14,526 nucleotides of DNA from a virus. Lineage: Duplodnaviria > Heunggongvirae > Uroviricota > Caudoviricetes. Position 1 is the stretch's first letter, and each line of letters starts with the position of its first letter. Shown here one piece after another: positions 1 to 14,526 of the stretch. Both the position numbers and the translations under genes were made by a program. Where the stretch lies: the IMG/VR virus record IMGVR_UViG_2778261256_000010, positions 1 to 14,526 of that record; one strand, 5' to 3'. The notes under the pieces are model-generated. The model did not search any database. It was not told where the DNA came from and worked only from the letters and a program-made list of their open reading frames with translations.

Positions 1-158
1 TCGAAACGTACTCTCAACAGTTCGCTTAGGCATGGAAGTTTTGCGGCATTCTGGCTACACAATAACAAGGGAAGACTTACTCGTGGCTGCAACCCTACTA
101 GCTCAAAATTTATTCACACATGGTTACGCTTTGGGGAAATTATGAGGGGATCTCTCAG
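1..158 (+). mobile_element. IS10-like (IS4 family) insertion sequence, 3' portion ending at the inside end
   Basis: Frame +2 reads ...RNVLSTVRLGMEVLRHSGYTITREDLLVAATLLAQNLFTHGYALGKL then TGA (143-145), which I recognise as the IS10 transposase C-terminus. The last 24 bp (135-158, ...GGAAATTATGAGGGGATCTCTCAG) are the reverse complement of the IS10 inside end CTGAGAGATCCCCTCATAATTTCC. Recognition is from memory. Confidence 0.8.
2..145 (+). CDS. IS10 transposase, C-terminal 47 codons (rest of gene lies left of the window)
   Basis: Open frame from the window edge to TGA at 143-145; sequence matches my recollection of the IS10 transposase tail. Confidence 0.75.
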   Translation, partial: RNVLSTVRLGMEVLRHSGYTITREDLLVAATLLAQNLFTHGYALGKL

Positions 159-386
159 TACTTTATCTCCCTTTTCTGCAGCTAGATCAATCCACTTCTT
201 GGCCTCAACTACATCCTTATCAAAACCATTGATACCATCAAAATAATTTGTCCCTAACTCACTTTGTGCTGCGGTATCCCCTGCGTTAGCGGCTTCTATC
301 AGCGTTTGTTTATTGTCTGCGTTAACGAATCCAGAGCTAAAAAGCAAAGTTAATGCCAGCAACGATGAAGATTTTATGAATTTCAT
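114..386 (-). pseudogene. Sel1-repeat secreted protein, 3'-truncated by IS10 (native part 159-386; 114-158 is read-through into IS10)
   Basis: Start at the second Met of the 114..431 ORF (MKFIKSSSLLALTLLFSSGFVNA, a signal-peptide-like N-terminus). One Sel1-like repeat (AQSELGTNYFDGINGFDKDVVEAKKWIDLAAEKGD) breaks off mid-repeat exactly at the IS10 end (158/159); the last 14 codons are IS10-derived. Confidence 0.6.
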
Positions 387-618
387 ATTTTTTGTTCTGT
401 TGATATAGGATGAACAGTTTAGACGCGGCAAGCGCCAAGTGTGCGAAAAGGGTACTTAAATTTAGTTTATCTGTCAGCTTTGTTAATATAGTTTATAGAT
501 GGTAAAGTTAACAGAAAACTAATCACAGCTAGAAATAATGACTTATTTAATTATTGTGACGCTGCACAAGATATACTTAAATTATAACAACGATAAATAT
601 AATTAAAGGGAAATCAAA

Positions 619-1032
619 ATGAGCAAAAATAAGCTGATTTTAACAGGAGCTTTATTGTCGTTATTTGCTTTAGTGGGGTGTAAACCCACCGACGAGAAGG
701 CTATTTCTCTGGGTCAACAGGCAATTGCGGATGATATGAAAGACCCCTCGTCTGTAATGTTTAGAAAAGATAAGTTCGTCAGGACTGATCATAATGACGG
801 GAGAGTTACCGGTTTTGTGTGCGGTGAATTAAACGCAAAAAATGGATTTGGTGCATACGTGGGCTACCACTCATATGTTGTCGAACTTGAAATGAAATCA
901 AAGGGCATGTTTTCTAAAGGTGTGGAATACAAAATCCTCATGAAGTCATTGGCACCAAACGAGCCTCATGATTTACAGCGTTATAAGCAGGTCTACAGAG
1001 AGATGTGCAACAGTGAGGCTGTAGCTCATTAA
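619..1032 (+). CDS. small lipoprotein, unknown function
   Basis: 137-aa ORF with RBS AAAGGGA 6 nt upstream; N-terminus MSKNKLILTGALLSLFALVGC has a signal peptide and lipobox (LVGC). Confidence 0.7.
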   Translation: MSKNKLILTGALLSLFALVGCKPTDEKAISLGQQAIADDMKDPSSVMFRKDKFVRTDHNDGRVTGFVCGELNAKNGFGAYVGYHSYVVELEMKSKGMFSKGVEYKILMKSLAPNEPHDLQRYKQVYREMCNSEAVAH

Positions 1033-1095
1033 TGTGAATGCCGGGCTTATCGTCTGCCTGGCTTCTTCGTATAGCAGACTATTGCGCCCGATATA

Positions 1096-1115
1096 ATAAG
1101 TAGATACTTACTTAT
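1096..1115 (+). repeat. 20-bp motif ATAAGTA-NN-TACTTACTTAT, copy 1 (identical arms to the copy at 4689-4708; near-copy at 11336-11355)
   Basis: ataagtagatacttacttat, 42 bp upstream of the 1157 start codon and immediately downstream of a perfect TATAAT (1092-1097). Confidence 0.55.
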
Positions 1116-1156
1116 TTTTCTGAAAGAATACTTTCATCTGTTAGTCAGGAGTTGCT

Positions 1157-1951
1157 ATGAAAGAAGAATTTCAGAAGTTAGTCTGCGACATCATCGACAA
1201 ATCCGGCGTAGAAATTGATACAGAAGAGCGCCAGAAGATTATCGACGAGGCGATCCAAACTGCACTGGAGCATATCGCCACGTCCGTGAGCACCGTACCT
1301 CTTTCGGAAGGCTCGAAATACATGCAGGTCTGGGTTCGTTTTGGAGAGTCCCCGGAGTTGCCAGGTGTTAAGCAGAAACGCGCGGCACTTGTGGCGTTCT
1401 CTCGCGAGATGAAAGACGCAACGGTCGAAGTGAGTACCGGTGCATGGTACGACGGCCGCATTGTCTACACCAATCAGACTGTGTGCGATAAAGGTGAACG
1501 GTTTGAGGATATTGTCGACGCAACTCTTCGCACGCTCAAAGTCAGAGCTGGTGTGGCGGATGATCCGTCCATCGCGGCGTTCCTGAGTATTGTCGAACAG
1601 TCTGAAGTTACCGAGCGCGTAACAGATCTGACAACTCCACCTGGTTTGCTGGAATTGGTGGTCAGTGGCGATATCAAAAAAGCCGTTGAGCGCATTCGTG
1701 AGGTGGAATACGGCATTATCTGCGATATGTGCCGCAGCGACTTAGACCTGGTGCGCATCATTGTCGACGCGGGTCAGGCATGTGACGGAGTACTCGCCAG
1801 TTTTGCAGGGCAAGTGGCTCGTCTGGCCAACGAATTACCCATGATTAAACAAGAAGCCAAATCCTACGCCGTTCATCGTACCAACGATTTACTGGACCCA
1901 TACCGGTTCGAAGCTGCTCAGGACAAAATGACTGGCTGGGCGACCTGGTAA
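1157..1951 (+). CDS. hypothetical protein (264 aa), no recognisable motif
   Basis: Long ORF with strong RBS AGGAG (1147-1151) 5 nt upstream, followed by its own terminator. Antisense ORFs 1171..1461 and 1474..1761 are taken as shadows. Confidence 0.7.
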   Translation: MKEEFQKLVCDIIDKSGVEIDTEERQKIIDEAIQTALEHIATSVSTVPLSEGSKYMQVWVRFGESPELPGVKQKRAALVAFSREMKDATVEVSTGAWYDGRIVYTNQTVCDKGERFEDIVDATLRTLKVRAGVADDPSIAAFLSIVEQSEVTERVTDLTTPPGLLELVVSGDIKKAVERIREVEYGIICDMCRSDLDLVRIIVDAGQACDGVLASFAGQVARLANELPMIKQEAKSYAVHRTNDLLDPYRFEAAQDKMTGWATW

Positions 1952-1969
1952 GCCTCGATAAAACATTTA

Positions 1970-1990
1970 GCCCCCTCGTGGGGCTTCTTT
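1970..1990 (+). terminator. Rho-independent terminator
   Basis: GCCCC-ctcgt-GGGGC stem-loop followed by TTCTTT, 19 bp after the stop of the 264-aa gene. Confidence 0.6.
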
Positions 1991-2032
1991 AAACTGCGAT
2001 TAATAAGTAAGTACAAGATTACGGTTAGAAGC

Positions 2033-2509
2033 ATGTCCACAAGAACAGATTTGTCGAAAATCCCGTCTATCTCCGGAAACAACGGTTATTCGCTGCGCTG
2101 CCCGGAAGTGAAGCTCAACGGCCATGAGGCTCATTGCAGCTATACAGTCTGCCAACACACGATCCTCGCCTATAAAGAAAAACGTCTCCCGGCTACATCG
2201 TTCCAGTCCTGCGCTGCGGCTATTGCTGCTGGTAAATGTCAGGCACTGAAAATGATGGTCGAAGAGATCCGCAAAGACGAACAGCTCTACTTCATCGATA
2301 TGTCTTCACTTATCAAAGAAGTGGAAGAGCAAAACGACCATGCCAGAACGCTCCCCCGGAAGCGAAACACCGCGACAATTGACAGTCTTATTCATCGCAC
2401 GAAGAAAACAGAACCTGCTAAATCCGAAACCAATCCCACCGATTCACTGGCGCCGATCACTGACGTGTACGCGGCACTCATTGAAGAAGCAACCAAAGAA
2501 AACACATGA
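2033..2509 (+). CDS. hypothetical Cys-containing protein (158 aa)
   Basis: ORF directly upstream of and co-oriented with the ligase; five Cys in the N-terminal half (C23, C35, C40, C60, C69) suggest a possible metal-binding module. No family recognised. Weak RBS. Confidence 0.55.
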   Translation: MSTRTDLSKIPSISGNNGYSLRCPEVKLNGHEAHCSYTVCQHTILAYKEKRLPATSFQSCAAAIAAGKCQALKMMVEEIRKDEQLYFIDMSSLIKEVEEQNDHARTLPRKRNTATIDSLIHRTKKTEPAKSETNPTDSLAPITDVYAALIEEATKENT

Positions 2510-2543
2510 AAACTCCCGAGCGACCGATGGAGGTTAAACACTA

Positions 2544-3866
2544 ATGGAAAAACTGATCGCCCTAAAGCACAAGCTGGATGCTATTAAAACGATGGGAACC
2601 AACGCCAAGAAAGAGGCGCTGGCCAATCTGGATGAATTTGAACAGAGCATGGTCTCGCTAATGCTCAATCCATTCATTCGATTCGGTGTGAAGAAGTACA
2701 AAGTGGCCGAGCCACTCGATACTTCCGTACCCAGCGACCAGAAGGTAGTAGATCTGCTGGAGAAGCTGGCAGCGCGCGAACTGACCGGGAACATCGCTAT
2801 TGCTGCTGTCGAATCACTCGTTGCCTCGATGTGCGCTGACGGGCAGGACGTGTTTCGTCGCTTCCTGCTGAAAGATCCGAAAGCCGGTGTCGGCATCAGC
2901 CTGTGCAACAAGGTGTTCGAAAACCCAATTCCGAAGTTTGAGGTACAGCTGGCGTCTCCGTACAAGGAGAAAGGCGACAAATACCCATTTAAACCAAATC
3001 CAAAGGCCAAGTGGCCAATGATCGGCAGTCTCAAACTCGATGGTCTCCGGGTTATCTGCGAAGTCATCGTGGACGAGGGTGAGGTCAATTTCCTGACGCG
3101 CACCGGCAATCCGATTACGTCACTCGATCACCTTAAACCAGCCATGCTGGAGCGGGGCAGACTCTCCGGCTTCAATCACATCTTCTTCGATGGAGAGGGC
3201 ACTGCAGGTACATTCAACCAGTCAGTGTCGGCGCTTCGTAAGAAGAACGTGAAAGCCATTGGTGCCGTTTACCACATTTTCGATTTCTTCTTACCGGAGT
3301 GGCGTGCTCAAGCAAAAAGCAAAGAGTACCTGAAGACCGGTATGAAGCTGAAAGAGCGCCTGGCTATGCTGGTGGCGTTGTTCCGCAACACTTGCGTGGA
3401 AGATTATGCGCAAGATATCCACCTTCATCCGTTCTACATCATCCATAGCCACGAAGATTTCATCGAACGTTTCATGAAGCGACTGGACGAGAATGAAGAG
3501 GGAGAGATGGACAAAGATCCGGATTCAGTTTACGAGTTCAAACGTACCCGCAGCTGGTGGAAGCTGAAAGACGAGGATTCAGAAGACGGTGAAATCATCG
3601 ACTTCGAGCCTGGCGATCCGGATTCTGGATTTGCGCATACGCTAGGCAAGATAGTGATTCGTCTGGAGAACGGCGTCATCGTTCGTGCCAGCGGTATCAA
3701 GCATAAATACCTGGATGAAATCTGGAACAATCAGGAGAAGTATCGTGGACGCATCGTTGAGGTTCACTGCCATGAGAAAACGCCAGATGGTAGCTTGCGT
3801 CATCCACGTCTGAAGTGGCCTAAATGTCTTCGAGATACCGAAGATCGTATTGGAGATAAAGAATGA
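2544..3866 (+). CDS. ATP-dependent DNA ligase, phage T4 gp30-like
   Basis: RBS GGAGG upstream. Nucleotidyltransferase motif I KLDGLR (K164, 3033-3050), FFDGEG, WWKLK, and the C-terminal LRHPRLKWPKCLRD (motif VI-like). The N-terminal domain aligns by eye with T4 ligase (ARELTGNIAIAAVESL...ISLCNKVF...LASPYKEKGDK versus T4 TRKLTGNAAIEELTGY...VSIANKVW...LASSYDEKGINK). Confidence 0.85.
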   Translation: MEKLIALKHKLDAIKTMGTNAKKEALANLDEFEQSMVSLMLNPFIRFGVKKYKVAEPLDTSVPSDQKVVDLLEKLAARELTGNIAIAAVESLVASMCADGQDVFRRFLLKDPKAGVGISLCNKVFENPIPKFEVQLASPYKEKGDKYPFKPNPKAKWPMIGSLKLDGLRVICEVIVDEGEVNFLTRTGNPITSLDHLKPAMLERGRLSGFNHIFFDGEGTAGTFNQSVSALRKKNVKAIGAVYHIFDFFLPEWRAQAKSKEYLKTGMKLKERLAMLVALFRNTCVEDYAQDIHLHPFYIIHSHEDFIERFMKRLDENEEGEMDKDPDSVYEFKRTRSWWKLKDEDSEDGEIIDFEPGDPDSGFAHTLGKIVIRLENGVIVRASGIKHKYLDEIWNNQEKYRGRIVEVHCHEKTPDGSLRHPRLKWPKCLRDTEDRIGDKE

Positions 3867-4042
3867 TGCTCGGCTGGATGTTTGTATTTTTAGTCGTCGG
3901 CATTGTTATCGGAAGTCTGGTTATGTCCAGCTGTATCCACGATTACGTAAAAGCCGGTGTCATGCAAAGGCGAGGTCGTATTTATCGCATAGTAGATATC
4001 ACGGACACACTGAAGGAGATTAAGGATGATCATGTTAAGTAA
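3863..4042 (+). CDS. small membrane protein (59 aa), not in the supplied ORF track
   Basis: ATG at 3863 overlaps the ligase stop (ATGA); RBS GGAGA 7 nt upstream; MMLGWMFVFLVVGIVIGSLVMSS is a predicted TM helix; stop TAA 4040-4042. Translated by hand. Confidence 0.45.
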   Translation: MMLGWMFVFLVVGIVIGSLVMSSCIHDYVKAGVMQRRGRIYRIVDITDTLKEIKDDHVK

Positions 4043-4238
4043 ACGAGAGAAGGAAACCCTGCGTGAAATTAGCAAGTGGAAGGAGTTCTACGCCAACTGG
4101 AAGCCGAAGACCAGAGCCAAACTGGAGCGCATGAATCTTGTCGCCAACGTTTCTCCAAAGGGATGTATTGAGAACTATCAACTGACTGAAAAAGGTTATT
4201 TGTTGTTGCAGCAATTGACTGAGGCGGGGGCGCACTGA
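4026..4238 (+). CDS. small hypothetical protein (70 aa)
   Basis: Strong RBS AAGGAG (4013-4018) 7 nt upstream of ATG 4026; soluble, charged sequence; stop overlaps the next start. Confidence 0.55.
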   Translation: MIMLSKREKETLREISKWKEFYANWKPKTRAKLERMNLVANVSPKGCIENYQLTEKGYLLLQQLTEAGAH

Positions 4239-4390
4239 TGATTCCATACATCATTTTATCTTTTACTGGTGGCGTGGGCCTCGGCCTCGCAATCTGCCGC
4301 GCCCTGGTCCAGCAGGAACTGCAAACCAAAACACTTCGTGTCGGTAAGCGTGTGTATCGGGTTGTTCACGAGACGGGAGTGCGAAAATGA
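4238..4390 (+). CDS. small membrane protein (50 aa), not in the supplied ORF track
   Basis: ATG 4238 overlaps the upstream stop (TGATG); MIPYIILSFTGGVGLGLAICRAL is a TM helix; stop TGA 4388-4390 overlaps the ATG of the next gene (4387). Confidence 0.4.
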   Translation: MIPYIILSFTGGVGLGLAICRALVQQELQTKTLRVGKRVYRVVHETGVRK

Positions 4391-4692
4391 GCAATTTGAC
4401 TTCCTTCGACTGGTGGCTGGCAACCTACCTTGTGGCGGCCGGCTTCGGATTTGCCTTTTACATTGGTCAGTTAATCGTAAAGCTACTGCTGATCAGATTC
4501 GCCAGCCATAAACGCATAGACGACGGTCTGTGGCGTCTGGGGTCCCTGTTAGAGACGCATTACGGCGAACTCAAGGAAAACGAAACTATCACTATTCAAG
4601 CGAAGCGTTTTACCGCCATCATCACGAGAACTCCGGAACAAAAGGGGAGCCTGATCAAAAAGATAGCAACTAAACGCATCACAGATAGATAA
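4387..4692 (+). CDS. small membrane protein (101 aa)
   Basis: N-terminal TM segment WWLATYLVAAGFGFAFYIGQLIV followed by a charged C-terminal domain; translationally coupled to the preceding small gene. Confidence 0.6.
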   Translation: MSNLTSFDWWLATYLVAAGFGFAFYIGQLIVKLLLIRFASHKRIDDGLWRLGSLLETHYGELKENETITIQAKRFTAIITRTPEQKGSLIKKIATKRITDR

Positions 4693-4708
4693 GTATTTAC
4701 TTACTTAT
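4689..4708 (+). repeat. 20-bp motif ATAAGTA-NN-TACTTACTTAT, copy 2
   Basis: ataagtatttacttacttat, overlapping the stop codon of the 101-aa gene; followed by CTAATAT...TATAAGAT, which is shared with copy 3. Confidence 0.55.
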
Positions 4709-4884
4709 CTAATATGTATAAGATCACTTTGTTTTCGTTGAGATGCGACTGTTTGAACGTTAAATATAACTGCAAACGAAGATGCATACCTGGCAGTAGC
4801 CTAAGAAGCCAAACACCAGCGAGGTCAGTTTCCAGCCTCGTCACCAAAATGGGACACACTGAGCGAGTGTGATTGCAGAACGCA

Positions 4885-4916
4885 GAATAGGGCATATTGC
4901 ACCATCCATGCCCTAT
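4885..4916. other. perfect 10-bp-stem hairpin (AATAGGGCAT / ATGCCCTATT, 12-nt loop)
   Basis: Direct reading; no U-tract after it, so not a classical terminator. Confidence 0.5.
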
Positions 4917-5071
4917 TCAATGAAGTAACAGAATGGGCGGTTGGTTTCATCATTCCATTCACCCATCCCGGTTTCAGCTGACCGTCCATTCTGTTACGTC
5001 ATTTCCATTACTTATGTCGTTTATACTTGGGTTAAAAGCGGCGACGTAACCCGGCTGACTTGGTTAGTCAG

Positions 5072-5189
5072 CACATAACGTTGAGATCACTGATTTTTCT
5101 TAAAATCATACAGGCGATTCCACATAGCTGTAGCGACTGATCAATATGTTGGGTTGAACATTAATCGGTTCAGTGATCTCAACGTTGTG
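5072..5189. repeat. 17-bp perfect inverted repeat (5076-5092 / 5169-5185; 20 of 21 if extended) flanking a 76-bp spacer
   Basis: AACGTTGAGATCACTGA and its exact reverse complement TCAGTGATCTCAACGTT; three GATC sites within the element. Confidence 0.55.
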
Positions 5190-5435
5190 AAAGCAGGATT
5201 AATTAACCCTCTAGTGAAAACATTGTTGCCTTTATTGCCCCTGACTTCACAACATGTATGATTCCATACATCCAATAAGATCGAAGAATCTAACGGCAAT
5301 CAACCACCGAGAAAGATTCCAGATCTTCGCTCATATGAGCGAGCCACATACCTCGTCTGGCACTAACGTAAAGTGCAAGTTGCGGGAAAGTTTCTGGCTG
5401 CCTGGTTGTCCATAAGCTAGTACCGCCGCGAAAAT

Positions 5436-5510
5436 GATGGTGTAGCTCAGTGGTAGAGCGGTTGACTGTTAATCAACTGGTCGGTGGTTCGAGTCCACCC
5501 ACCATCGCCA
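5436..5510 (+). tRNA. tRNA-Asn (anticodon GTT at 5468-5470)
   Basis: Folded by hand into a full cloverleaf: 7-bp acceptor stem GATGGTG/CACCATC, D-arm GCTC-AGTGGTA-GAGC, anticodon stem GTTGA/TCAAC with loop CTGTTAA, T-arm GGTGG-TTCGAGT-CCACC, discriminator G, encoded CCA. Confidence 0.9.
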
Positions 5511-5663
5511 ACATAGCGCTGAACGGTTTGGATTCGCCACCACCGTCCGAACGAAAGACTCCGCAAATGTCGCCAGACCGTTCAGCGCTGTGATAGACAC
5601 GGCAGACGTTTTTTAACCATTGCTTCTAAGCATCGTAGCAACACTTTTTTCAGCGCAAAATCC

Positions 5664-5685
5664 AAAGGGGCTTCGGCCCCTTTTT
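5664..5685 (+). terminator. Rho-independent terminator downstream of the tRNA
   Basis: AAAGGGGC-TTCG-GCCCCTTTTT: GC-rich stem, tetraloop, T-run. Confidence 0.7.
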
Positions 5686-5764
5686 GCTATCAAGTCGCAT
5701 ATGCAACCAACTTTTTTTAGCTTATAGTTAAGTTCAGTAGTAGAATGCTACGCTTCGTCGAGAA

Positions 5765-6313
5765 ATGACGATTATGGAGTCTATCGTGAAATTTAAAATC
5801 CAGCATTTGCAGGCAGCAGTGGCACTGGTTCTTGCCAGTATCCAGCCGCAACCCAAAGCGGTTGCGTGTCAGCCTACGATTGTAGAACGGGTTTATGAGA
5901 TGGGCGCTAGAGTCAACAAAACCGACATCAGTGATCTTACAGCTGCTCTCAATGAATTGGCTAAAGAACTGCGTTCAAGCCGCGCTGAACTTGCTCATTA
6001 TGCTGACACTGACTTCTTTGCTGCTATCAAAGTAGCGGAAGAAATTAAGAATCAAACTATTCATGTAGCCGGTATCGCAGAATCTTTTGTTTTGATGTTA
6101 CCTGAAAAAGACGTCATCATGTCTTACGACAAAAACACTGTTGAGTTTGCGTTTTTTAAGGCTATTAAAATGGTCAGTATTGCGACCAAAAACTATCTCA
6201 ATCTGATTGATCAGATTACACGCACTTCTGTAGTGCGTGACTCTGGTGTCAACCTTTTAGCCATGAACCATCTATTAGAGACTGGCAACAAGGCTGCGGC
6301 TAAATGGCATTAA
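5765..6313 (+). CDS. putative antitoxin-like partner of the YafO-family toxin (182 aa; true start uncertain)
   Basis: ORF ends 10 nt inside the toxin gene (6304-6313 overlap), the usual toxin-antitoxin coupling. No recognisable Phd/YefM or RHH sequence signature; much larger than E. coli YafN (~97 aa). Confidence 0.45.
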   Translation: MTIMESIVKFKIQHLQAAVALVLASIQPQPKAVACQPTIVERVYEMGARVNKTDISDLTAALNELAKELRSSRAELAHYADTDFFAAIKVAEEIKNQTIHVAGIAESFVLMLPEKDVIMSYDKNTVEFAFFKAIKMVSIATKNYLNLIDQITRTSVVRDSGVNLLAMNHLLETGNKAAAKWH

Positions 6314-6720
6314 CGGCTGAATACAGTCAAGTTACGTGGGATGATTTTTTTCAGCCCACTTTTGTCGTTTACCCTGACCTAGAAAGTCAGCTCAAATCCG
6401 AGTTCATTACTTACAAATCAACTGGCGCACCATCTAATCTTCTTGGACGAGATGCGCCATTTGACTTCCCGCCGTTCGCCGTTGATGCTAATGTCCAGCA
6501 TATTCACGTCAATTTGCATTTCCAGCTTACCTGGAACGCAAGGCAAGAGAACTACAACCGAACCTCAAACCACTATCTCGTTTATACCGAGCACATGTGG
6601 GATAGCGGGCGTTTTTTGCTGATGGGGCTAGTCACTCCAGCTCACGATCGTATGCCAGCAAGAGATACTAGGTTGCTCAGCTACTTCGCTGAAGTCGCAG
6701 AAGGTTTCCATTCTAGCTGA
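6304..6720 (+). CDS. yafO: YafO-family type II toxin (ribosome-dependent mRNA interferase family)
   Basis: Aligned by eye to my recollection of E. coli YafO: FITYKSTGAPSNLLGRDAPFD vs FISYKRDGVLPDIFGRDALYD; VQHIHV vs VAHIHL; RTSNHYLVY vs RTNDEAHLVY; FLLMGLVTPAHDRMPARD vs WLLIAILKPEPHKLARD. Confidence 0.7.
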   Translation: MALTAEYSQVTWDDFFQPTFVVYPDLESQLKSEFITYKSTGAPSNLLGRDAPFDFPPFAVDANVQHIHVNLHFQLTWNARQENYNRTSNHYLVYTEHMWDSGRFLLMGLVTPAHDRMPARDTRLLSYFAEVAEGFHSS

Positions 6721-6887
6721 ACTTTAGCGATCGTCATCTTCTTCATCATTCTTTTTCTTCTAACAAATCATTCTCATCAATCTGGCTCAGATGGCATTCC
6801 AAAGTTGGCGTTATTAGGCGCTTTTTACTATTTAGCGTTTAAGATGGTTTGTCTACATAATTTATTCAGAATTTACGTAAGCTATAT

Positions 6888-6922
6888 AAATGATTCCATA
6901 CTTGTAAGGTATGGAATCATTT
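6888..6922. promoter_or_regulatory. perfect 14-bp inverted repeat AAATGATTCCATAC-N7-GTATGGAATCATTT (candidate operator)
   Basis: Exact palindrome about 100 bp upstream of the recombinase ORF; shares the core TGATTCCATAC with the 15-bp direct repeats at 4238 and 5258. Confidence 0.5.
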
Positions 6923-6973
6923 TCAAAAACAGTCTATTTTACTGTTGATCATACAAAAACTGAGGCCTAACAC

Positions 6974-6992
6974 ACTGTTTATAAATACAGTA
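6974..6992. promoter_or_regulatory. LexA (SOS) box-like site, CTGT-N8-ACAG
   Basis: ACTGTTTATAAATACAGTA against the gammaproteobacterial consensus TACTGTATATATATACAGTA; AT-rich spacer; about 30 bp upstream of ATG 7021. It is the only CTGT-N8-ACAG I found in the window. Confidence 0.5.
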
Positions 6993-7020
6993 AAAACAGG
7001 CTTCACTCAGTGAGTGGACT

Positions 7021-8124
7021 ATGAAAAACACTTTTGATAAAGCACGCGCAGCAGAAAACACCTCTAGAGAAGCCATCGAGTATCTCGAACGCGCTTCCGG
7101 TTTGTCAGCAGTGTCGACCACCAATTTCGACGGTGACATGTCGTTTTCTTCCGCATTCATGTTATTCACTCGCTTATCTTTGCTGATAACGAGACGTCGA
7201 CCTGAAATAGCTGTTCATTGTATTTTGATACATGTAATGCCGCATATCTGTGAAGTAAAAGTAAGTGACATTAGTAGGGTTTTAGTCAACCAGCTGGTGA
7301 ACCCATTAATACTTGAGGGCAAGATCGTCCAGGGCAGACGTGTGTTCTCGCTGATGAAGCAGTTTCTCAGTTGGTGTGCATTTCAGGGCTTAATTGATAC
7401 ATCCCCATTGAACGATATGTCGCTTAACAGAGTAGCCGGTGGCGCGAAGCCCACGCCGCGCGAGCGCAAACTGACCGACGCAGAGGTCTGGGTCTTTTGG
7501 AATGTATGGGACTACTTCAACGTATGTGAGGGTACAAAGTGGGCGGCCAGATTATGCCTTGTAGCGGCCAGACGACCAGATGAAGTGCTCCGAGCTAAAA
7601 GATCAGAATTCAACCTCGAATATAATTTATGGAATCAAGGAACGAGGAATAAATCGGCTCGCCAGCACTCGTTACCATTAAGCCCGCTAATGCGCAAATG
7701 TGTTGAGGAGCTGATCAAATACGGAAAAGGCAGCCAGTGGCTTGTTCCTTCAAACAAGAAACAGGGTGAGGATGTGCCAATGTCTAAGGTGGCCATATCA
7801 CAGGCGTTGAGAAGGATTTTAGAACGTCCAGAGTTGATGGAGCTTGAGCCATTTACCCCCCGAGATTTGCGTCGTACTGCGCGTAGTTACTTCCCCGCGT
7901 TAGGCATAAGTCAGGAGGTATCCCGCAAAATTATGAACCACAGTCTTGAGGGGATAGATCGAGTATACGATCGACACGATTATATAGACGAGATGCGAGA
8001 CGCCTTAAACAGTTTTTCGGCGTACATCGCATCAATCGTAGAGAAACAGGATTTAGAGGAGATAGATCATAAGTTCAAGGGAGATCGACTCGCTACTGAG
8101 CTAATCCGTGTAAATTTCTCATAG
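7021..8124 (+). CDS. tyrosine recombinase/integrase, P4-like catalytic core; arm-binding N-terminal domain absent, first ~60 aa unrelated
   Basis: Core-binding-like segment from about aa 70 (HVMPHICEVKVSDISRVL...VFSLMKQFLSWCAFQGLIDTSPLNDMS); catalytic signatures ARRPDEVL (box I Arg), FTPRDLRRTA (box II, with R where His is usual), NHS, and RVYDRHDY (catalytic Tyr). Confidence 0.65.
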   Translation: MKNTFDKARAAENTSREAIEYLERASGLSAVSTTNFDGDMSFSSAFMLFTRLSLLITRRRPEIAVHCILIHVMPHICEVKVSDISRVLVNQLVNPLILEGKIVQGRRVFSLMKQFLSWCAFQGLIDTSPLNDMSLNRVAGGAKPTPRERKLTDAEVWVFWNVWDYFNVCEGTKWAARLCLVAARRPDEVLRAKRSEFNLEYNLWNQGTRNKSARQHSLPLSPLMRKCVEELIKYGKGSQWLVPSNKKQGEDVPMSKVAISQALRRILERPELMELEPFTPRDLRRTARSYFPALGISQEVSRKIMNHSLEGIDRVYDRHDYIDEMRDALNSFSAYIASIVEKQDLEEIDHKFKGDRLATELIRVNFS

Positions 8125-8517
8125 CGACTTGATTGCCTCAACAACCCGCTCCGACGCACCACGTTGGTCACCGAAACGTCGACGGAAGGCTTCCAGAACT
8201 AGTTTTTCATCTTTAGTCAGAGGGGCTGTGCCTTCGTCGCGAAAAAACGCTAACAGCTCTGGATGACGCTCTTCCAGCACCATTAGCATCAATCGGACCG
8301 AATCGGCATCCAATGCTTTAGCCAACGCTCTGACCTTGTCGATCGGAAGCGGGATTTTGCCGCTCTTGATAAGTGAAAGATTGTTAGGGTTTTTATAGCC
8401 TGCTTCTTTCGCGATGGTCGCCTGGCTTTTCGGAGAAATCGCGATTAAAGCGTCAATGTAAGCAGCGTAGCGACCTACTTTAGCTTCTGTTGTTTCGTTG
8501 GTAGCCATAATTATCAA
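8119..8517 (-). CDS. helix-turn-helix (XRE/Cro-like) transcriptional regulator
   Basis: SQATIAKEAGYKNPNNLSLIKSGKIPLPIDKVRALAKAL is a canonical HTH; convergent with and overlapping the recombinase 3' end by 6 bp. Start may be the second ATG (MATNE...). Confidence 0.65.
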   Translation of the reverse strand: MIIMATNETTEAKVGRYAAYIDALIAISPKSQATIAKEAGYKNPNNLSLIKSGKIPLPIDKVRALAKALDADSVRLMLMVLEERHPELLAFFRDEGTAPLTKDEKLVLEAFRRRFGDQRGASERVVEAIKSL

Positions 8518-8764
8518 CCTGCGTGTTTTGATTTTATTTGGTAAGTGCTTACTGATATTACATCAAAGGTTAGTGTTGTAAAGACTTATCTATTTTTTTA
8601 CGTAGGTTTACTGACCGCAAAAGGCTTCATTAATAGACAACTATCTAAAAAATAACTCATTTAAGAACTTAAAACTAAGTTGTATTTGATATATAAGTAT
8701 TCCGTATTGATACAATAGGTAGTAGTATTGCAAGGCATTTACGTGTTCAGTTGGATGATATGAA

Positions 8765-8977
8765 ATGAAAAAAATAACTTCTAATTTGATCGCCCTTGAG
8801 GTCGGACATACGGTTTCAATTGACGATGATGGGGCAGCAGCCATACTCACTGAACTGCCAACAAAGTCTTTGTTACTTGACATGAAAGACGCAACCGCAT
8901 ACATCTTTGAGCTAAAGGGCAAGTGCTTCACTCTCATCAATACCGGCTGCGGTTCAGTAGCCGTCCGCACAAGTTAA
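8765..8977 (+). CDS. small hypothetical protein (70 aa)
   Basis: RBS-like GGATGA upstream; sits just upstream of the vWA gene; could be spurious (AT-rich surroundings). Confidence 0.35.
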   Translation: MKKITSNLIALEVGHTVSIDDDGAAAILTELPTKSLLLDMKDATAYIFELKGKCFTLINTGCGSVAVRTS

Positions 8978-9002
8978 CACCACCCCTCCCATCCTCTCTA
9001 GC

Positions 9003-9037
9003 GCCTGTACGAACAGATTAGATGCCTGTTCGTACAG
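9003..9037. promoter_or_regulatory. tandem near-palindromic sites GCCTGTACGAACAG / GCCTGTTCGTACAG (candidate operator pair)
   Basis: CTGTACGAACAG (9005-9016) and its exact reverse complement CTGTTCGTACAG (9026-9037), 9-bp spacer, about 55 bp upstream of the preferred start of the vWA gene. Confidence 0.45.
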
Positions 9038-9090
9038 TGATAAATTACGCACATCAGAAAACAAATTGTTTTAACAACAAGGGAATTCTA

Positions 9091-11319
9091 ATGTCCAAAA
9101 AAACCACCAAAGCTGTACTGAAAGAGGTGCAGGATTTTCGCGACTGTGTAAAACGAGTTGTAGCGATGCTTTCAGGTAAACAGATACCTGTTGCAGAACG
9201 AGGCAATGAAGCATATGTCCGCTATAACCGGCGCGGCGAACCAGTGCTGGTAAACATCCCATCTATACCGGACGACGCGTCGCCAACCCTCATGAACGCA
9301 GTGCGTGGTTTTCTCGACCATGAGGTGGCCCATATTCTCTTTACTGAACCGAAAGTCGCAATGCAGATGCGCGAAAGAGGAAAGGCTCCGTCTACGGGGC
9401 TTTGGAATGCGCTGGAAGACGTTTTTATTGAACGCAGAATGGGGCAGGTCTTTAACGGAACCCGGCGTAATTTACTTGCAACACAGAGTCTGGTTATCGA
9501 CAAATACTTCAGGAATAAAGTACCAGAAGCGGTTTTAGCCTGTCACGGAGACCAGCGTGAATTGTTTTTGAAATTCTTCCTTTGCCCGGTCGTCCGCGCC
9601 TGGGATGGACAAAGCCCCTTCATCGATTTTATGGAAGAACACTGGCGCCTTATCGAGAGGCCGGTAGCCTTACTAAAGGAGCATGGTATAGACGTGGCCG
9701 TTCGCAATATGTCGAACACTGAGGATTGCGTGAAGGTCGCTGCTGCTATAGCCCAAATCATGCAGGATATGAAAGACAAGCCAGAGGGCAAATTACCAGA
9801 ACTTAAATCATCTGCCAGAAAGCCGTCGGAGAGCAAAGACGAGTCCGAGGAAACGCCAGAATCAGGTGACGAGCCGTCTCATGGTGACTCTGCATCTAAG
9901 CCTGCCAAAGGCGAAGGCGATGACAAGGAAGAACGAGAAGATGATGCATCAGAAGAGGAAGATTCTGGGGATTCCGATTTGCCTGATTCGTTAGATAAGG
10001 ACTTACCTACACACGTTAAAGATATTAGTGATACAGAAAGTAAATATACAGAAGCAGGCCACGAAGAGTCAGGAGACACCCCAGAATCCGATGCTATCGG
10101 CATGAAATCAAGTGACTCTGACACCGATGGTGATGGCGGTGAGGACTCCGATACTGATCGTGGGGAAACTGAAGAAGACGTCGAAGGCAAAAAAAATAAA
10201 GATGGTGCGGAAGTGCCCAAAGACAGTGAGTCTGGCTTTGTTCCTGCGCCGGATGAAATGACTCTGGAGGAGGCGCTAAAGGCGCTCGACGAGATGGAAG
10301 ACGGAATCGGTGAAATGACCGAAGACGCACTGTCGGCCACCATCAGCAAAGAGCTTATGAGCGTCTCACCTTCTGATTATCGGCCATACGATCGATCATA
10401 CGACTTTATCGGGTTGATTGATGGAGCCGAAGAGCATGTGAAGCGCACCAGAAAGACGTTCGGTGCAATACCAATGCACTCACCAGTCGACCGCTACCGT
10501 ATGGTGCCAGAAGGCAGAAAACTCTTTGAACTGAAAATCGAAAAACATCTGTCTGCAGGCGTTTCTTCGACGCTGGCCAAAGACCTGGAGCGGGCCATCG
10601 CCAGCCGCAACCGAGTTCAGTTTATACCTGGTCAGAGGCGTGGGCGGATACATGGCGCGAGCCTGTATCGTCTGGCAATGAACGACGACCGAGTGTTCCG
10701 CAAGAAGGAAGACCATAGAGCGGTGAACGCGTGTGTCCAGCAAGTCATCGACTTGTCCGGCTCAATGGATGGCGTGAAGATTCAACTGGCCCTAGCCAGT
10801 GCCTATACCATTGCGGATGCTTTAGATCGTATCAATGTCCCCAACATCATCACCGGCTTTACCACGTTCGGTAGCCCAGATTATGAAACCAGGTCGAAGC
10901 GCGGGTTTACACGCTTCGAGGCGCTCATGCTGCCCATTATCAAAAACTGGAATGAGAAAGCAAACTCTCCAGAGATCCGTGCTCGCATGGGATGCGTATG
11001 TGAGACGTTCCCCCTGCTCAATAACGTCGATGGTGAGAGTGTCGCGCAACTGGCTACCCTGTTTGCAGGGCGAATGGAGGACAAAAAGATCATGCTGGTT
11101 ATGAGTGATGGGGAGCCATGTGCTACAGGTAGTGGATTCCATCAGCATTTACGAACCGTCACCAAAGAAATTGAGACCTTGAGCGACATCGAACTGATGG
11201 CTATCGGCATTCTGACCGACGAACCACGGCGTTACTACAAAAATTACGCACTGGTTAACAGTGTTGAAGAGTTAGGGCCGTCAGTCGTCACTGAGTTATC
11301 TCGTATCATTCTTGGGTAA
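9091..11319 (+). CDS. CobT/BchD-like architecture: N-terminal HExxH (zincin-like) module, ~170-180 aa acidic Ser/Asp/Glu-rich linker, C-terminal von Willebrand factor A domain
   Basis: Preferred start ATG 9091 (RBS AAGGGA 6 nt upstream); the track ATG 9022 lies inside the palindrome and lacks an RBS. HEVAH at 9319-9333 with Glu in NALEDVFIERR about 25 aa downstream (gluzincin-like spacing). vWA MIDAS DLSGS (10750-10764), then GFTT and MSDGEP. Confidence 0.75.
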   Translation: MSKKTTKAVLKEVQDFRDCVKRVVAMLSGKQIPVAERGNEAYVRYNRRGEPVLVNIPSIPDDASPTLMNAVRGFLDHEVAHILFTEPKVAMQMRERGKAPSTGLWNALEDVFIERRMGQVFNGTRRNLLATQSLVIDKYFRNKVPEAVLACHGDQRELFLKFFLCPVVRAWDGQSPFIDFMEEHWRLIERPVALLKEHGIDVAVRNMSNTEDCVKVAAAIAQIMQDMKDKPEGKLPELKSSARKPSESKDESEETPESGDEPSHGDSASKPAKGEGDDKEEREDDASEEEDSGDSDLPDSLDKDLPTHVKDISDTESKYTEAGHEESGDTPESDAIGMKSSDSDTDGDGGEDSDTDRGETEEDVEGKKNKDGAEVPKDSESGFVPAPDEMTLEEALKALDEMEDGIGEMTEDALSATISKELMSVSPSDYRPYDRSYDFIGLIDGAEEHVKRTRKTFGAIPMHSPVDRYRMVPEGRKLFELKIEKHLSAGVSSTLAKDLERAIASRNRVQFIPGQRRGRIHGASLYRLAMNDDRVFRKKEDHRAVNACVQQVIDLSGSMDGVKIQLALASAYTIADALDRINVPNIITGFTTFGSPDYETRSKRGFTRFEALMLPIIKNWNEKANSPEIRARMGCVCETFPLLNNVDGESVAQLATLFAGRMEDKKIMLVMSDGEPCATGSGFHQHLRTVTKEIETLSDIELMAIGILTDEPRRYYKNYALVNSVEELGPSVVTELSRIILG

Positions 11320-11335
11320 TAGCTTACCCTTAAAA

Positions 11336-11355
11336 ATAAGTAACTACTTACTATA
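11336..11355 (+). repeat. 20-bp motif, copy 3 (ATAAGTA-AC-TACTTACTATA)
   Basis: 17 bp after the vWA gene stop and about 60 bp upstream of the zinc-finger gene; followed by CTAATAT...TATAAGAT as at copy 2. Confidence 0.5.
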
Positions 11356-11413
11356 CAGCCTAATATATTTCTATAAGATATACCCCACAAACGACAAACA
11401 GTAAGGAAAAAAC

Positions 11414-11680
11414 ATGACCGCTACTGCACTACAGCAAGAAGAACATTTGCCGGAAGCCATCGTCTGCAAGTGGTGTGGCAAATCCTTTCATTACCTGAAA
11501 TCCCATATCTCTATGGGCCGTTGCGAGAATATTCCTGAGTCTGCGAAGGGTCTGGACGTGGACGAAGTGGTGAAGATGTACACCTCTGCGTTTCCAGATG
11601 AACCAACGATCTCTCGCACGGCACTGGCCAAACTCAATGAGAAGGGGTCGTTTGCGGGAGGGGGCGGAATCCTACGCTAA
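11414..11680 (+). pseudogene. Ros/MucR-type zinc-finger mini-protein, 3' end replaced by the Tn3-family inverted repeat (native part 11414-11643)
   Basis: RBS AAGGA 6 nt upstream. IVCKWCGKSFHYLKSHI matches the Ros/MucR zinc-finger IVCLECGGSFKSLKRHL, and SRTALAKLNEKG matches ARSRLAKEMGLG. From codon 78 the ORF is encoded by the transposon IR (GSFAGGGGILR). Confidence 0.5.
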
Positions 11681-11681
11681 G
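11644..11681. repeat. Tn3-family 38-bp terminal inverted repeat (GGGG...ACGCTAAG)
   Basis: GGGGTCGTTTGCGGGAGGGGGCGGAATCCTACGCTAAG; outer GGGG at 11644; the tnpA stop (CTA on +, 11677-11679) lies inside the IR, as is typical of the family. Confidence 0.8.
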
Positions 11682-14449
11682 GCTTTGGCCAGCGATATTC
11701 TCCGGTGAGATTGATGTGTTCCCATCCGAGCGGCGAAACATGGGCCAAGAGATCGGGCGATAGCAGCTTTCCATCGCGTTTCTGGTTTGCAACGACCTCG
11801 CCGAGCTTCATGGTGTTCCAGAAGATGATGATGGCGGCGAGCAGATTCATGCCGGCGATGCGGTAATGCTGGCCTTCGGCGGAACGGTCGCGGATTTCAC
11901 CGCGGCGGTGGAAGCTGATTGCCCGCTTCAGCGCATGATGAGCTTCGCCTTTGTTGAGCCCGATCTGGGCACGCCGTTGGAGTTCGGCATCCAGAATCCA
12001 GTCGATCATGAACAGGGTGCGCTCGACGCGACCGACTTCCCGCAGGGCTGTCGCGAGCTCGTTCTGCCGCGGATAGGAGGCGAGTTTCCGCAGAATCTGG
12101 CTTGGCGCGACGGTCCCGGCAGCAATGGTGGCGGCGATGCGCAGGATGTCGGGCCAATTGCGCTCGATCATGGCTTGGTTGACCTTTCCGCCGATCAACG
12201 CTCGCAGGTGCGCCGGGGCGGCCGACGGATTGAACGCGTAGAGCCGTTTGGATGGCAGGTCGCGGATGCGCGGAGCGAACCGGTAGCCGAGAATGGCACA
12301 TGCGGCAAAGACGTGATCGGTGAAGCCGCCCGTGTCGGTGAACTGCTCGCGGATATGGCGTCCAGCATCGTTCATCAGCAGGCCATCGAGGATGTAAGGC
12401 GCTTCGCTTGCCGTTGCAGGAATCACCTGGGTTGCGAACGGCGCATATTGGTCGGAGACGTGGCTATAGGCTTTCAGGCCCGGGGTATTGCCATATTTCG
12501 CGTTGACCAGGTTCATGGCCTCACCTTGCTCTGTAGCGACGAAGAACTGTCCGTCGCTCGAAGCCGACGTGCCCATGCCCCAGAACCGGGCCATGGGTAA
12601 CGCTGCCTGTGCCTCGACCACCATGGCCAGCGCCCGGTCATAGGCTTCGCCCTCGACATGCCACCGTCCAATGCGGATCAATTCCCAGAAGGTGTGGGTG
12701 TTTGTCGCATCCGCCATTTTGCGCAAGCCGAGGTTGATCCCTTCCGCCAAGATAACGTTCATTAGCCCGATCCGGTCAGCGCAGGGTGCTCCTGTGCGCA
12801 GATGGGTGAACGCTTCGGTGAAGCCGGTCGCCGCATCCACCTCCAGCAGGAGATCGGTGATGCGCGTGGGCGGGATCTGCTTGTAGAGATCGAGCACCAG
12901 ATCTTCGGCGCCTGTCGGCGCGGCGGCTTCGAGTTTCTCGATATGCAGAACGCCGTTTTCAATCGACCCGCCCGGGATCGTGCCTGCGCGAGCGGCACGG
13001 CCAAGCTCGCGCAACCGCATGTCGAGGCGAGCTTGCCGGTCTGCCAGCCATTCCTCCGGCCGCAATGGCACAGCGAGACGACCGCCTTCCGCGATGGATT
13101 GTGCCGGAACGAGTGCGTGTTTCAGATCGCCATAGCGCCGGGACCTAGTAAGCCAGACATCTCCGGAGCGGAACGCATCGCGCAGATGGAACAGCACCGC
13201 GATCTCCCATAGGCGAGCGTCGCCAGCCCTCTGGGCCCGAAGGTGGCGATGCCATTTCGAGCTGGGCCGCAAGAAGCTGGTCATCGCGGCATCGTTCAAA
13301 CCGGTACGAAGGGCCGTCACCGCTTCCAGAAGCGGCAGTGCAACGGGCGCAGCTCGCAGATCGAGCAGGCGCAACATGCGTGGAGCGTATCGGCGGAAGC
13401 GGTGATAACCGTCGAGCACATGATTGAGCGGATCGTCGGCCATGGTGGCGGTCAGCCTGGTTGCCATTGCAACAAGGGTTTTTAAGCCGTCCCACCCTGA
13501 CCCACTCGCGATGACATCGCCCAGCGGCTGGCCATCATCCTGTGCATCGACCAGGGCGCCCCCGATCTCGGCGAAGGATTTCAGGGTGTCACGCACCACC
13601 CCCGCTTCGTCTGCGACCTTTGCATGGCAAATACGCTCCGAAGCACGGTAGAGACGGCCGACGATCCGGTCGTGGGTTTCGACCACTGCGTCGGCCAACA
13701 TCGCCTGCCATTCCGAGACGCAAACAGCCAAGATCGCAAGCCGCCTGTCCTCCGGGAGATCGCGCATGCCGTCGGCATAATACCGTTCACCCTGCCTGCG
13801 CAGACGAGTCACCCGATGGGCAGGAACGCCGGCAAGCAGATCCTCGGGGAGATCGATGCGTTGCAGATATTCGAGCCGGTCGAGCAGCCGGTTGGCCGAC
13901 GAAGAGTTCGAGCCAGGCTCGAACTGGCGCAGCCACACAAAACGGGTCACCCGATCATCAGCCGTCTCCTCGAGCAATGCCAGCAACTGTTCTCGGATCG
14001 ACATAGGCAGCCGACTGGCGATCCTCGTCTCGATGCGTCGCTCGGCATCGACGAGAGCCGCGGCACAAAGCCGCTCGATCGTGGATGTCGCGGGAAGGAC
14101 AGTGCGGGTGCGTCGGCACTCGGCTACGAAGCGACGGGCGATATCCTCGTTCGACACCGCCATCTCGGCTTCTCGGAACAACCATTCCTTCAGCTCGCTC
14201 GCACCACGTCCGGAGAAGGTGCGGAAGCCGTAGAGCCCCCGTAACTCGGCAAGATGCTCGTGCCGTGTTTCCTCGCGGGCAGCATAGTCTACGAGATCGT
14301 CGGCACCCAGGCCAAGCTGCGCTCCGATAAATTCGATGACCTCTGCAGGGATCAGTTCGCCTGGAGCCAGCACCCGGCCGGGATAGCGCAGGACACACAA
14401 TTGCAGGGCGAAGCCGAACCTGTTGTGAGCGCGCCGACGCAGCCTGATA
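11644..14449 (-). mobile_element. Tn3-family transposon remnant (one IR plus 5'-truncated tnpA; no res, tnpR or cargo in view)
   Basis: High-GC block bounded by the 38-bp IR on the left and the IS10 outside end on the right. Confidence 0.8.
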
Positions 14450-14505: not shown

Positions 14506-14526
14506 CTTGTCATATGATCAAATGGT
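14450..14526 (+). mobile_element. IS10-like outside end (5' portion of a second IS10 copy, continuing past the window)
   Basis: CTGATGAATCCCCTAATGATTTTTATCAAAATCATTAAGTTAAGGTAGATACACATCTTGTCATATGATCAAATGGT matches my recollection of the IS10 outside end and pIN/pOUT region with a few substitutions. Confidence 0.8.

Follow-up and report, generated by a model that had tools for sequence, protein, structure and literature searches.

The subject of this analysis is an inverted repeat that directly follows a tRNA-Asn gene (anticodon GTT) in the Caudoviricetes record IMGVR_UViG_2778261256_000010 of IMG/VR, of which positions 1 to 14,526 were analysed; this whole stretch is called the window. We conclude, with a probability of roughly two in three, that the two arms of the repeat form a 20-bp stem within an RNA hairpin of the tRNA strand that measures about 82 nt (5511-5592), and that this hairpin, a trailer of about 70 nt, and an intrinsic terminator constitute the 3' external transcribed spacer (3'ETS) of the tRNA unit. 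For the narrower statement that a plus-strand RNA hairpin of the tRNA trailer is under selection, our estimate is about 0.7. The involvement of one particular nuclease and a trans-acting role of the RNA are both tentative and, in our view, rather doubtful. Judged by its relatives, the window is that of an SSU5/pHCM2-type phage-plasmid. The module consists of the following features:

5436-5510, plus strand: tRNA-Asn (anticodon GTT) with encoded CCA, called by ARAGORN and scoring 76.2 bits with the Rfam tRNA model.
5512-5531, plus strand: left (5') arm of the hairpin, which includes the 13-mer at 5515-5527 and pairs with 5573-5592 in 18 of 18 distinct homologues.
5532-5572, plus strand: hairpin interior of 41 nt, delimited by alignments, with a small inner stem-loop, AAGACUCCGC, and a variable 3' part.
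5573-5592, plus strand: right (3') arm, which includes the 13-mer at 5577-5589 and is missing from phage SSU5.
5593-5663, plus strand: conserved trailer, AUAGACA..CGGCAGACGUU, then UAGCAACAC, a U6 run, and CAGCGCAAA.
5664-5685, plus strand: intrinsic terminator, AAAGGGGC-UUCG-GCCCCUUU plus a U run.

A perfect 13-nt inverted repeat had been noticed by an earlier reading of the letters alone (the sequence-only reading), and it is present exactly where it was placed: AGCGCTGAACGGT occupies 5515-5527 and its exact reverse complement ACCGTTCAGCGCT occupies 5577-5589, with a spacing of 49 nt. The repeat extends beyond 13 nt to the 20-nt arms listed above, which are 90% complementary as DNA. Folded as RNA, they give an unbroken run of 20 pairs that includes two U.G pairs, with a predicted energy of -40.4 kcal/mol (z = -4.7); none of 200 dinucleotide shuffles was equally stable. 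Among 300 windows simulated with a first-order Markov model, only 4 contained a perfect inverted repeat whose arms reach 13 nt or more and whose loop does not exceed 100 nt. The repeat is genuine and not a product of chance. The stem begins 1 nt past the CCA of the tRNA, and its base reads CAUAGCG ... CGCUGUG. Inside the hairpin, the stem-loop at about 5534-5553 (UUCG...CGAA) is lineage-specific, and AAGACUCCGC (5555-5564) is a conserved single-stranded motif; the segment that had drawn the attention of the sequence-only reading, GGATTCGCCACCACCGTCCG, is found at 5530-5549. With its 20 pairs, the two U.G included, the helix has the length of an RNase III substrate, which is about two turns (some 20 bp or more) of uninterrupted double-stranded RNA.

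The hairpin matches no family of Rfam (release 15): At the gathering threshold, only tRNA was found in the window, and nothing was reported over 5511-5690 at E <= 10. Scans of 5300-5800 and 4650-5450, both at gathering and at E <= 10, likewise returned tRNA alone. Literature searches for small RNAs of SSU5 and pHCM2 brought up no paper on this RNA. An integron attC site was considered as well and rejected: The stem base lacks the AAC/GTT boxes (RYYYAAC ... GTTRRRY would be expected), and the integrase domains present are generic Phage_integrase domains only.

For the comparison of homologues, about 70 loci were gathered by means of the downstream motif GTGATAGACA..CGGCAGACG, and pairing was analysed for 18 distinct sequences; a first scan of viral contigs with a 15-mer probe had been too unspecific and had delivered mostly chance loci. 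All 20 pairs are formed in 100% of the cells of this alignment, and registers slid against each other pair in at most 56%. Two pairs were changed on both sides between lineages (C-G to U-A and A-U to G-C), two vary only to U.G, and the remaining 16 of 20 are invariant. One lineage (L129) carries a C.A intermediate of a compensated pair. The covariation of the stem is shallow yet consistent. The 5' half of the interior, which holds 5530-5549, has been replaced by unrelated sequence in other hairpin types. For each type, a small inner hairpin is predicted at the same place, formed by unrelated sequences, and most types keep AAGACUCCGC.

The wobble variants bear on the strand on which the structure would act. 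For this purpose, two further long hairpins of the window were included:

4919-5003, plus strand: hpA, a paralogous long hairpin with 23-nt arms (-37.8 kcal/mol, z = -7.2), a weak match of the covariance model of the hairpin under study (17.4 bits, E = 0.016).
5074-5189, plus strand: hpB, a paralogous long hairpin with 20-nt arms CAUAACGUUGAGAUCACUGA / UCAGUGAUCUCAACGUUGUG (-44.5 kcal/mol, z = -4.6), matched by the same model at 24.2 bits (E = 3.5e-4).

Counted as position-types, G.U variants on the plus strand number 2 in the hairpin under study, 6 in hpB, and 8 in hpA (16 altogether), as against 0, 1, and 1 A.C variants, which correspond to G.U on the minus strand (2 altogether). A covariance model built from 16 variants of the hairpin under study scored 82.5 bits on the plus strand and 41.2 bits on the minus strand. 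The bias of G.U variants, the model scores, the lack of an open reading frame (ORF), and the fixed place between tRNA and terminator point to an RNA of the tRNA strand. Since the bias argues against a double-stranded protein site, a protein-binding palindrome of this type is unlikely. A small structured RNA co-transcribed with the tRNA had been among the proposals of the sequence-only reading. It gains support from the compensatory changes of the stem, from G.U variants that occur in this hairpin on the plus strand only, from the fixed position 1-2 nt past the CCA, and from the trailer leading to the terminator; co-transcription is what this arrangement suggests.

The module is widespread among phage-plasmids. 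Plasmids of E. coli match positions 5200-5900 at 99-100% identity. Positions 5430-5700 are matched by 1,239 PLSDB plasmids, mainly of Escherichia, Klebsiella, Salmonella, Enterobacter, Citrobacter, and Cronobacter, and 507 of these cover at least 80% of the segment. Among deposited phages, the only matches are SSU5 and SSU5-like phages of Klebsiella and Escherichia. Hairpin and trailer were found in 245 of 5,426 complete E. coli genomes (about 4.5%), with a median of one copy per positive genome; all copies are plasmid-borne, none is annotated, and the number of chromosomal places in the 5,426 genomes is zero. A scan of genome contigs gave mainly chance matches, with the exception of Buttiauxella and Kluyvera. 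The order of hairpin, trailer, and terminator, which closes the tRNA array in hundreds of plasmids of Enterobacteriaceae, is constant, and the stem begins 1-2 nt past the CCA that ends the last tRNA. This last tRNA is tRNA-Asn in the window, in pHCM2, and in some Klebsiella plasmids, and tRNA-Ser(TGA) in Asn-Ser, Asn-Thr-Ser, and Asn-Tyr-Thr-Ser arrays. The ORFs in the neighbourhood, which code for an ATP-dependent DNA ligase, a YafO toxin, a tyrosine integrase, and CobT, fit the backbone of these elements.

Beyond the hairpin, the trailer (5593-5663) is near-invariant across lineages whose hairpin loops are wholly different. No stem is consistently formed by it across the aligned relatives, and no ORF of at least 60 aa overlaps 4896-5764, the trailer included. 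The 8-bp terminator stem (5664-5671 / 5676-5683) is retained in all 18 sequences. Directly after the U run of the terminator, the sequences of the relatives diverge, so that the terminator marks the end of the conserved module. At the other end of the unit, a consensus scan predicted one feature:

5235-5262, plus strand: putative sigma-70-like promoter of the tRNA unit, TTGCCC-16 nt-TATGAT, overlapping a 15-mer at 5258-5272.

If this site acts as a promoter, as its sequence suggests, the transcription unit would comprise about 420 nt, namely promoter, a 165-nt leader, tRNA-Asn, hairpin, trailer, and terminator. The hairpins hpA and hpB, which lie upstream of the promoter, are then probably contained in the 3' region of the transcript before this one. 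The 15-mer ATGATTCCATACATC (5258-5272), which shares positions with the -10 element of the predicted tRNA promoter, does not vary among 12 diverse relatives. A second exact copy lies at 4238-4252, and a near-palindromic inverted pair (6890-6904 on the plus strand, 6906-6920 on the minus strand) is located upstream of the integrase. In total, 6 matches were found in the window versus 0.43 expected, and 3 exact copies exist within 50 kb of a sister plasmid; the phage-plasmid probably uses the 15-mer as a promoter or operator motif. The loop of hpA contains a looser copy, ATCATTCCATTCACC, and TTCCATTCA is found in the loops of some variants of the hairpin under study.

We propose the following course of events. 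Transcription would start at the promoter-like site 5235-5262 and proceed through tRNA-Asn, hairpin, and trailer to the terminator. A perfect 20-bp helix located 1 nt past the CCA would block maturation of the tRNA 3' end by 3' exonucleases alone, and owing to this block, an endonucleolytic cut would be required to part the tRNA from the hairpin. This cut could be made by RNase E directly after the CCA, as is the case with the proline tRNAs of E. coli, or by RNase III within the helix, whose length of about two helical turns is that of an RNase III substrate. In this way, a trailer RNA of about 180 nt would be released, or one of about 100 nt after cleavage of the stem. The hairpin could protect the 5' end of this RNA, and the 3' end, with a U-rich stretch (U6), the terminator, and a U tail, resembles that of Hfq-type small RNAs (sRNAs). 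The hairpin would accordingly be a processing domain for RNase III or RNase E, or a stabilising domain, of a candidate sRNA; the structure of the hairpin is supported by the alignments. The location agrees with that of the known sRNAs derived from a tRNA 3'ETS: The element lies between the CCA of the last tRNA and the terminator, and on the tRNA strand, as deduced from the G.U bias.

Several observations weigh against this interpretation. The covariation is shallow: The two compensated pairs probably result from one or two events among close relatives, and the number of doubly changed pairs does not exceed that of the shuffle control. Two stem mismatches occur in each of the lineages L128, L161, L168, and L172, where no tRNA abuts the hairpin, and in L132, where the hairpin follows tRNA-Asn. 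The basal mismatches of the first four of these lineages are a weak hint that the base of the stem is linked to the adjoining tRNA; as their arms are shared, these mismatches may go back to a single event. A strand-specific, G.T-tolerant hairpin of single-stranded DNA would give the same strand bias as an RNA. Furthermore, SSU5 is a viable phage that lacks the right arm, the trailer, and the terminator; lytic growth can therefore do without the element, and so, possibly, can the maturation of tRNA-Asn. Transcription, processing sites, and stability of the RNA are predictions made from the nucleotide sequence. Finally, no RNA target stood out among the translation-initiation regions over 50 kb of the sister plasmid. 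When 39 such regions were searched with RNAduplex, the trailer performed no better than shuffled sequences, 87% of which did as well. The result for the loop was marginal (4.5% of the shuffles were as good), and it was due to a long imperfect duplex, which we regard as uninformative. An anti-Shine-Dalgarno role of AAGACUCC, which is complementary to GGAGUCU in the ribosome-binding site (5776-5782) of the following gene, was dismissed: The downstream gene differs in the relatives, a 7-mer match of this kind is expected about twice per window, and a search for complements showed no enrichment.

A different origin was also proposed by the sequence-only reading, which saw in the loop a degenerate copy of the tRNA 3' half that may be a decayed attachment (att) site. 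In the form considered here, this copy would have been left behind when the segment that carries the integrase and separates the tRNA from cobT was integrated or excised. We regard this explanation as highly improbable. A Phage_integrase-family tyrosine integrase is indeed encoded nearby (7021-8124, 1.4 kb downstream of the hairpin and 0.8 kb from the right junction described below); integrase genes also occur in this region of relatives that do not possess such a junction. The likeness of the loop to the tRNA is no better than chance. The alignment of 5525-5555 with 5483-5510 gave a score of 13 with 8/9 identities (CCACCACCG versus CCACCATCG; p = 0.08 in 5,000 shuffles), and for the whole loop and the tRNA 3' half p is 0.16. 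Loops linked to tRNA-Ser do not resemble their own tRNA either (p = 0.11-0.23), and the segment equivalent to 5530-5549 is missing from them, having been replaced by other sequence. At the far border of an integrated element, one would expect a direct repeat of the tRNA 3' end, usually at least 15 nt and near-identical; here, the right border (8941-8970) shows no such similarity to the tRNA 3' half (p = 0.26). What looks at first sight like an argument for an att site is phage SSU5, which is colinear with window positions 2206-5549 and 8961-11644 and lacks 5550-8960 (3.4 kb), its junction falling within the segment 5530-5549. The missing part comprises the right arm, the trailer, the terminator, an ORF of 175-182 aa, YafO, the integrase, and two small ORFs; the YafO toxin is accompanied by a putative antitoxin. 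It is flanked by two direct repeats:

5543-5549, no strand assigned: left 7-bp copy of CCGTCCG in the hairpin loop, located by BLAST of the SSU5 locus against the window.
8961-8967, no strand assigned: right 7-bp copy of CCGTCCG, located by BLAST in a small coding sequence (8765-8977) that is annotated in an identical RefSeq plasmid and lies upstream of cobT.

Positions 3344-3350 of SSU5 align with both copies in the BLAST comparison. In spite of this, SSU5 does not represent the empty site that would have been expected of such a relative: It contains no intact attB, and the break lies inside the loop, at the 7-bp microhomology CCGTCCG. Because the right repeat is situated within an annotated coding sequence whose last codons remain in SSU5, so that the junction truncates both the hairpin and this coding sequence, SSU5 is, according to the sequence of its junction, a microhomology deletion derivative and not the ancestral attB state. 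The two junctions, neither of which resembles the tRNA, are related over only 7-10 bp (p = 0.03); this is typical of such a deletion rather than of an att core and its arm sites. Both arms are present, along with the complete trailer, in pHCM2 and in relatives from Klebsiella and other E. coli, where longer and different sets of genes follow past the terminator. The absence of right arm and trailer from SSU5 indicates that the hairpin module is dispensable for lytic growth.

That the palindrome acts at the level of DNA, as a protein-binding site, a cruciform, or a single-stranded hairpin serving, for example, as a priming or recombination signal, is improbable, although the arms are highly conserved (the 16 invariant pairs never vary), the tRNA array is a recombination-prone region, and the conserved paralogous hairpins share arm-base sequences. 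Of the 5 copies of the 8-mer GCGCTGAA in the window (0.8 expected), 3 are inside the module, at 5516, 5581, and 5649, and fall within a stretch of 150 bp; the arm itself, however, is not repeated in other parts of the window. The idea that the arm motif is a repeated protein site was rejected, the 12-nt core having no other copy in the window with fewer than two mismatches. A single-stranded hairpin specific for one strand would tolerate G.T as well. Nevertheless, the bias of 16 versus 2 on the tRNA strand is contrary to a double-stranded site, the compensatory changes keep the pairing and not the sequence, and the element always lies between the tRNA 3' end and an intrinsic terminator in the orientation of the tRNA. 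Moreover, the spacer of 41-49 nt is hypervariable and too long for a dimeric operator, and SSU5 replicates and packages its DNA without the right arm. Equally improbable is a neutral palindromic remnant (MITE-like, REP-like, or the scar of a duplication) with no present function. Duplication and loss are suggested by the number of similar hairpins, which varies from 1 to 6 units between close relatives, and SSU5 has lost half of the element without obvious harm. Against this, the module has been kept in several hundred plasmids of at least 7 genera, and pairing is maintained as the loop turns over. Unlike dispersed REP or MITE elements, it occurs once per plasmid and never on E. coli chromosomes, and neither target-site duplications nor terminal repeats beyond the stem are seen. 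A dispersed palindromic repeat of the REP, ERIC, or MITE type was likewise rejected on account of the zero chromosomal places in 5,426 E. coli genomes and the arm core, which is not repeated in the window. A terminator or attenuator of the tRNA gene would account for a strong hairpin directly downstream of a tRNA; it is, however, very unlikely, as the 20-bp stem, which ends at 5592, is followed by GAUAGACA / AUAGACACGG with no U run, and the canonical, conserved terminator is located 72 nt further on (5664-5685). A model with alternative structures is conceivable, as a small terminator-like hairpin (5587-5603) with a T6 run overlaps the right arm; in most relatives, however, the T run past 5603 is broken (TTCTT).

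This small hairpin, GCUGUG-AUAGA-CACGGC, and the U6 run that follows it lie within 5587-5615; the interruption just mentioned affects this run. Due to the overlap with the right arm, the hairpin can form only if the long stem is open. In addition, TTCAGCGC of the right arm is repeated at 5649-5656, directly before the true terminator, and in all lineages the left arm could pair with this copy, via G.U where the arm has changed. A corresponding alternative pairing of the left arm with 5649-5666 was examined and rejected: The segments are in the wrong order for a single helix, and AATCCAAA varies without covariation.

In kind, the proposed hairpin RNA resembles the RNase III processing hairpins of phages, the RNAs that originate from a tRNA 3'ETS, and prophage sRNAs. 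Phage hairpins processed by RNase III include the R sites of T7, lambda sib, and the precursor of the T4 tRNA cluster with its stable RNA species 1; the T4 cluster carries stable small RNAs of unknown function, and the T7 sites have characteristic internal loops. Common to these hairpins and the present one are phage-encoded double-stranded stems of about two turns between functional RNAs. There is no relationship in sequence or by Rfam, and for the present hairpin cleavage by RNase III is a proposal. 3'ETS-leuZ of the E. coli glyW-cysT-leuZ operon is freed when the tRNA 3' end is processed endonucleolytically, and as an Hfq-bound RNA it serves as an sRNA sponge (PMC6191717, PMC8166272). Both elements are non-coding, are located between the CCA of the last tRNA and the intrinsic terminator of the operon, and end in a terminator with a U tail. 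However, 3'ETS-leuZ has a length of about 50 nt and is essentially the terminator region, whereas the trailer RNA considered here would be about 180 nt long, and the 20-bp hairpin at its 5' end is not a terminator. The two are not similar in sequence, and the present element is encoded by a phage-plasmid and is likened to Hfq-type sRNAs by the architecture of its 3' end. In the case of E. coli proK, proL, and proM, RNase E removes a hairpin abutting the CCA in one step (PMC5291269). There as in the window, a stable stem-loop begins 1-3 nt past the encoded CCA, so that maturation would need an endonucleolytic cut and not trimming by exonucleases. The difference is that the hairpin of these proline tRNAs is the Rho-independent terminator itself and is discarded, whereas here 70 conserved nt and a separate terminator follow. 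These additional parts suggest that the released RNA matters.

Phage-plasmids of the SSU5/pHCM2 type are common in clinical Salmonella Typhi, Klebsiella, Enterobacter, and E. coli. Their tRNA region, which has so far been annotated merely as 'tRNA plus hypothetical proteins', contains a conserved structured RNA module and a family of paralogous hairpins. The module is a concrete candidate for a regulatory RNA of phage-plasmids and for a part in the maturation of the tRNAs they encode. It also forms a fixed boundary before variable cargo (AbiH, toxin-antitoxin pairs, phoH, and fimbrial genes), which is of help for annotation and comparative genomics. No major concept would be changed by this finding, unless a trans-acting function were demonstrated.

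The tRNA region of the window holds at least three long hairpins that are paralogous to one another, the hairpin under study among them. Like it, hpA and hpB are situated in the non-coding region of 1.07 kb (4693-5764), and they are conserved across the family. Detection by the covariance model of the hairpin under study identifies them as its paralogues. Their helices of 19-24 bp have the length of RNase III substrates as well. In hpB, 3 of 19 pairs are changed on both sides and 98.8% of the cells are paired; hpA possesses a covarying stem in which several pairs occur as three pair types. By inspection, the hairpins other than hpA share the base CACARCG / CGYUGUG and the mid-stem UGAR/UAAG; a stem top UUGG / CCAG with U.G at the same place is common to the hairpins and is the sole feature shared by hpA. 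Applied to the relatives, the model assigned up to 39 bits to hpB and 20-25 bits to hairpins in Thr-to-Ser spacers, and the plus strand always scored better. These Thr-to-Ser or Asn-to-Ser spacers consist of 1-6 such units and measure 146-646 nt in Asn-Tyr-Thr-Ser arrays; examples are 5230-5402 of locus L158 and spacers of L057, L085, L006, L043, L076, L166, and L174.

In the spacers between tRNA-Thr and tRNA-Ser, relatives with longer arrays moreover carry a branched unit of about 120 nt, which matches STnc100 (RF02076) at 43.8 bits (E = 5e-8; the gathering threshold is 47). The STnc100/PasD family consists of prophage sRNAs of the Hfq type with terminators (bioRxiv 10.64898/2026.05.13.724894). 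The arrays of these relatives thus bear sRNA-like genes beside hairpins of the present family. The two folds are different: The hairpin under study is simple and long, whereas the STnc100 fold is multi-branched, and no match to STnc100 was found in the window, for the hairpin and the trailer not even at E <= 10. STnc100-like sRNA genes within the tRNA arrays of phage-plasmids do not seem to have been reported previously. One may speculate that the long hairpins, three in the window and up to six more in the arrays of relatives, form an RNA 'punctuation' system of SSU5-type phage-plasmids. Two-turn helices with a shared base and top would be recognised by host RNase III or by a factor of the element, and tRNAs and STnc100-like sRNAs would be excised as cassettes. 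The terminal unit would release a new Hfq-type sRNA acting on host or phage-plasmid expression, for example on a lysis-lysogeny or maintenance decision. We consider this extended scheme clearly unlikely as a whole.

Some minor observations concern other parts of the arrays and of the window. A tRNA-like gene of about 130 nt with an insertion of about 55 nt in the anticodon region is present in L006 (5176-5310) and L172 (4524-4653, minus strand). The L172 gene scores 46.7 bits with the Rfam tRNA model, and the 130-nt version is not called by ARAGORN. In other arrays, an uninterrupted tRNA-Thr(TGT) occupies the same place, and the gene may be an intron-containing or a disrupted tRNA. At 11500-14526, the G+C content, about 0.47 before, jumps to about 0.62. 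Next to cobT, this part encodes a transposase of the Tn3 family (942 aa, minus strand); by its sequence features, it is a transposon insertion into the phage-plasmid backbone. In agreement with this assignment, Tn3-like units inserted near the tRNA loci of SSU5-like phage-plasmids have been described (bioRxiv 10.1101/2025.09.12.675607). The predicted start of the cobT-like gene (9022) falls within a perfect inverted repeat (9005-9037) whose 12-nt arms, CTGTACGAACAG / CTGTTCGTACAG, are 9 nt apart. SSU5 has kept this repeat, with a single loop change; it may be an operator or an RNA hairpin.

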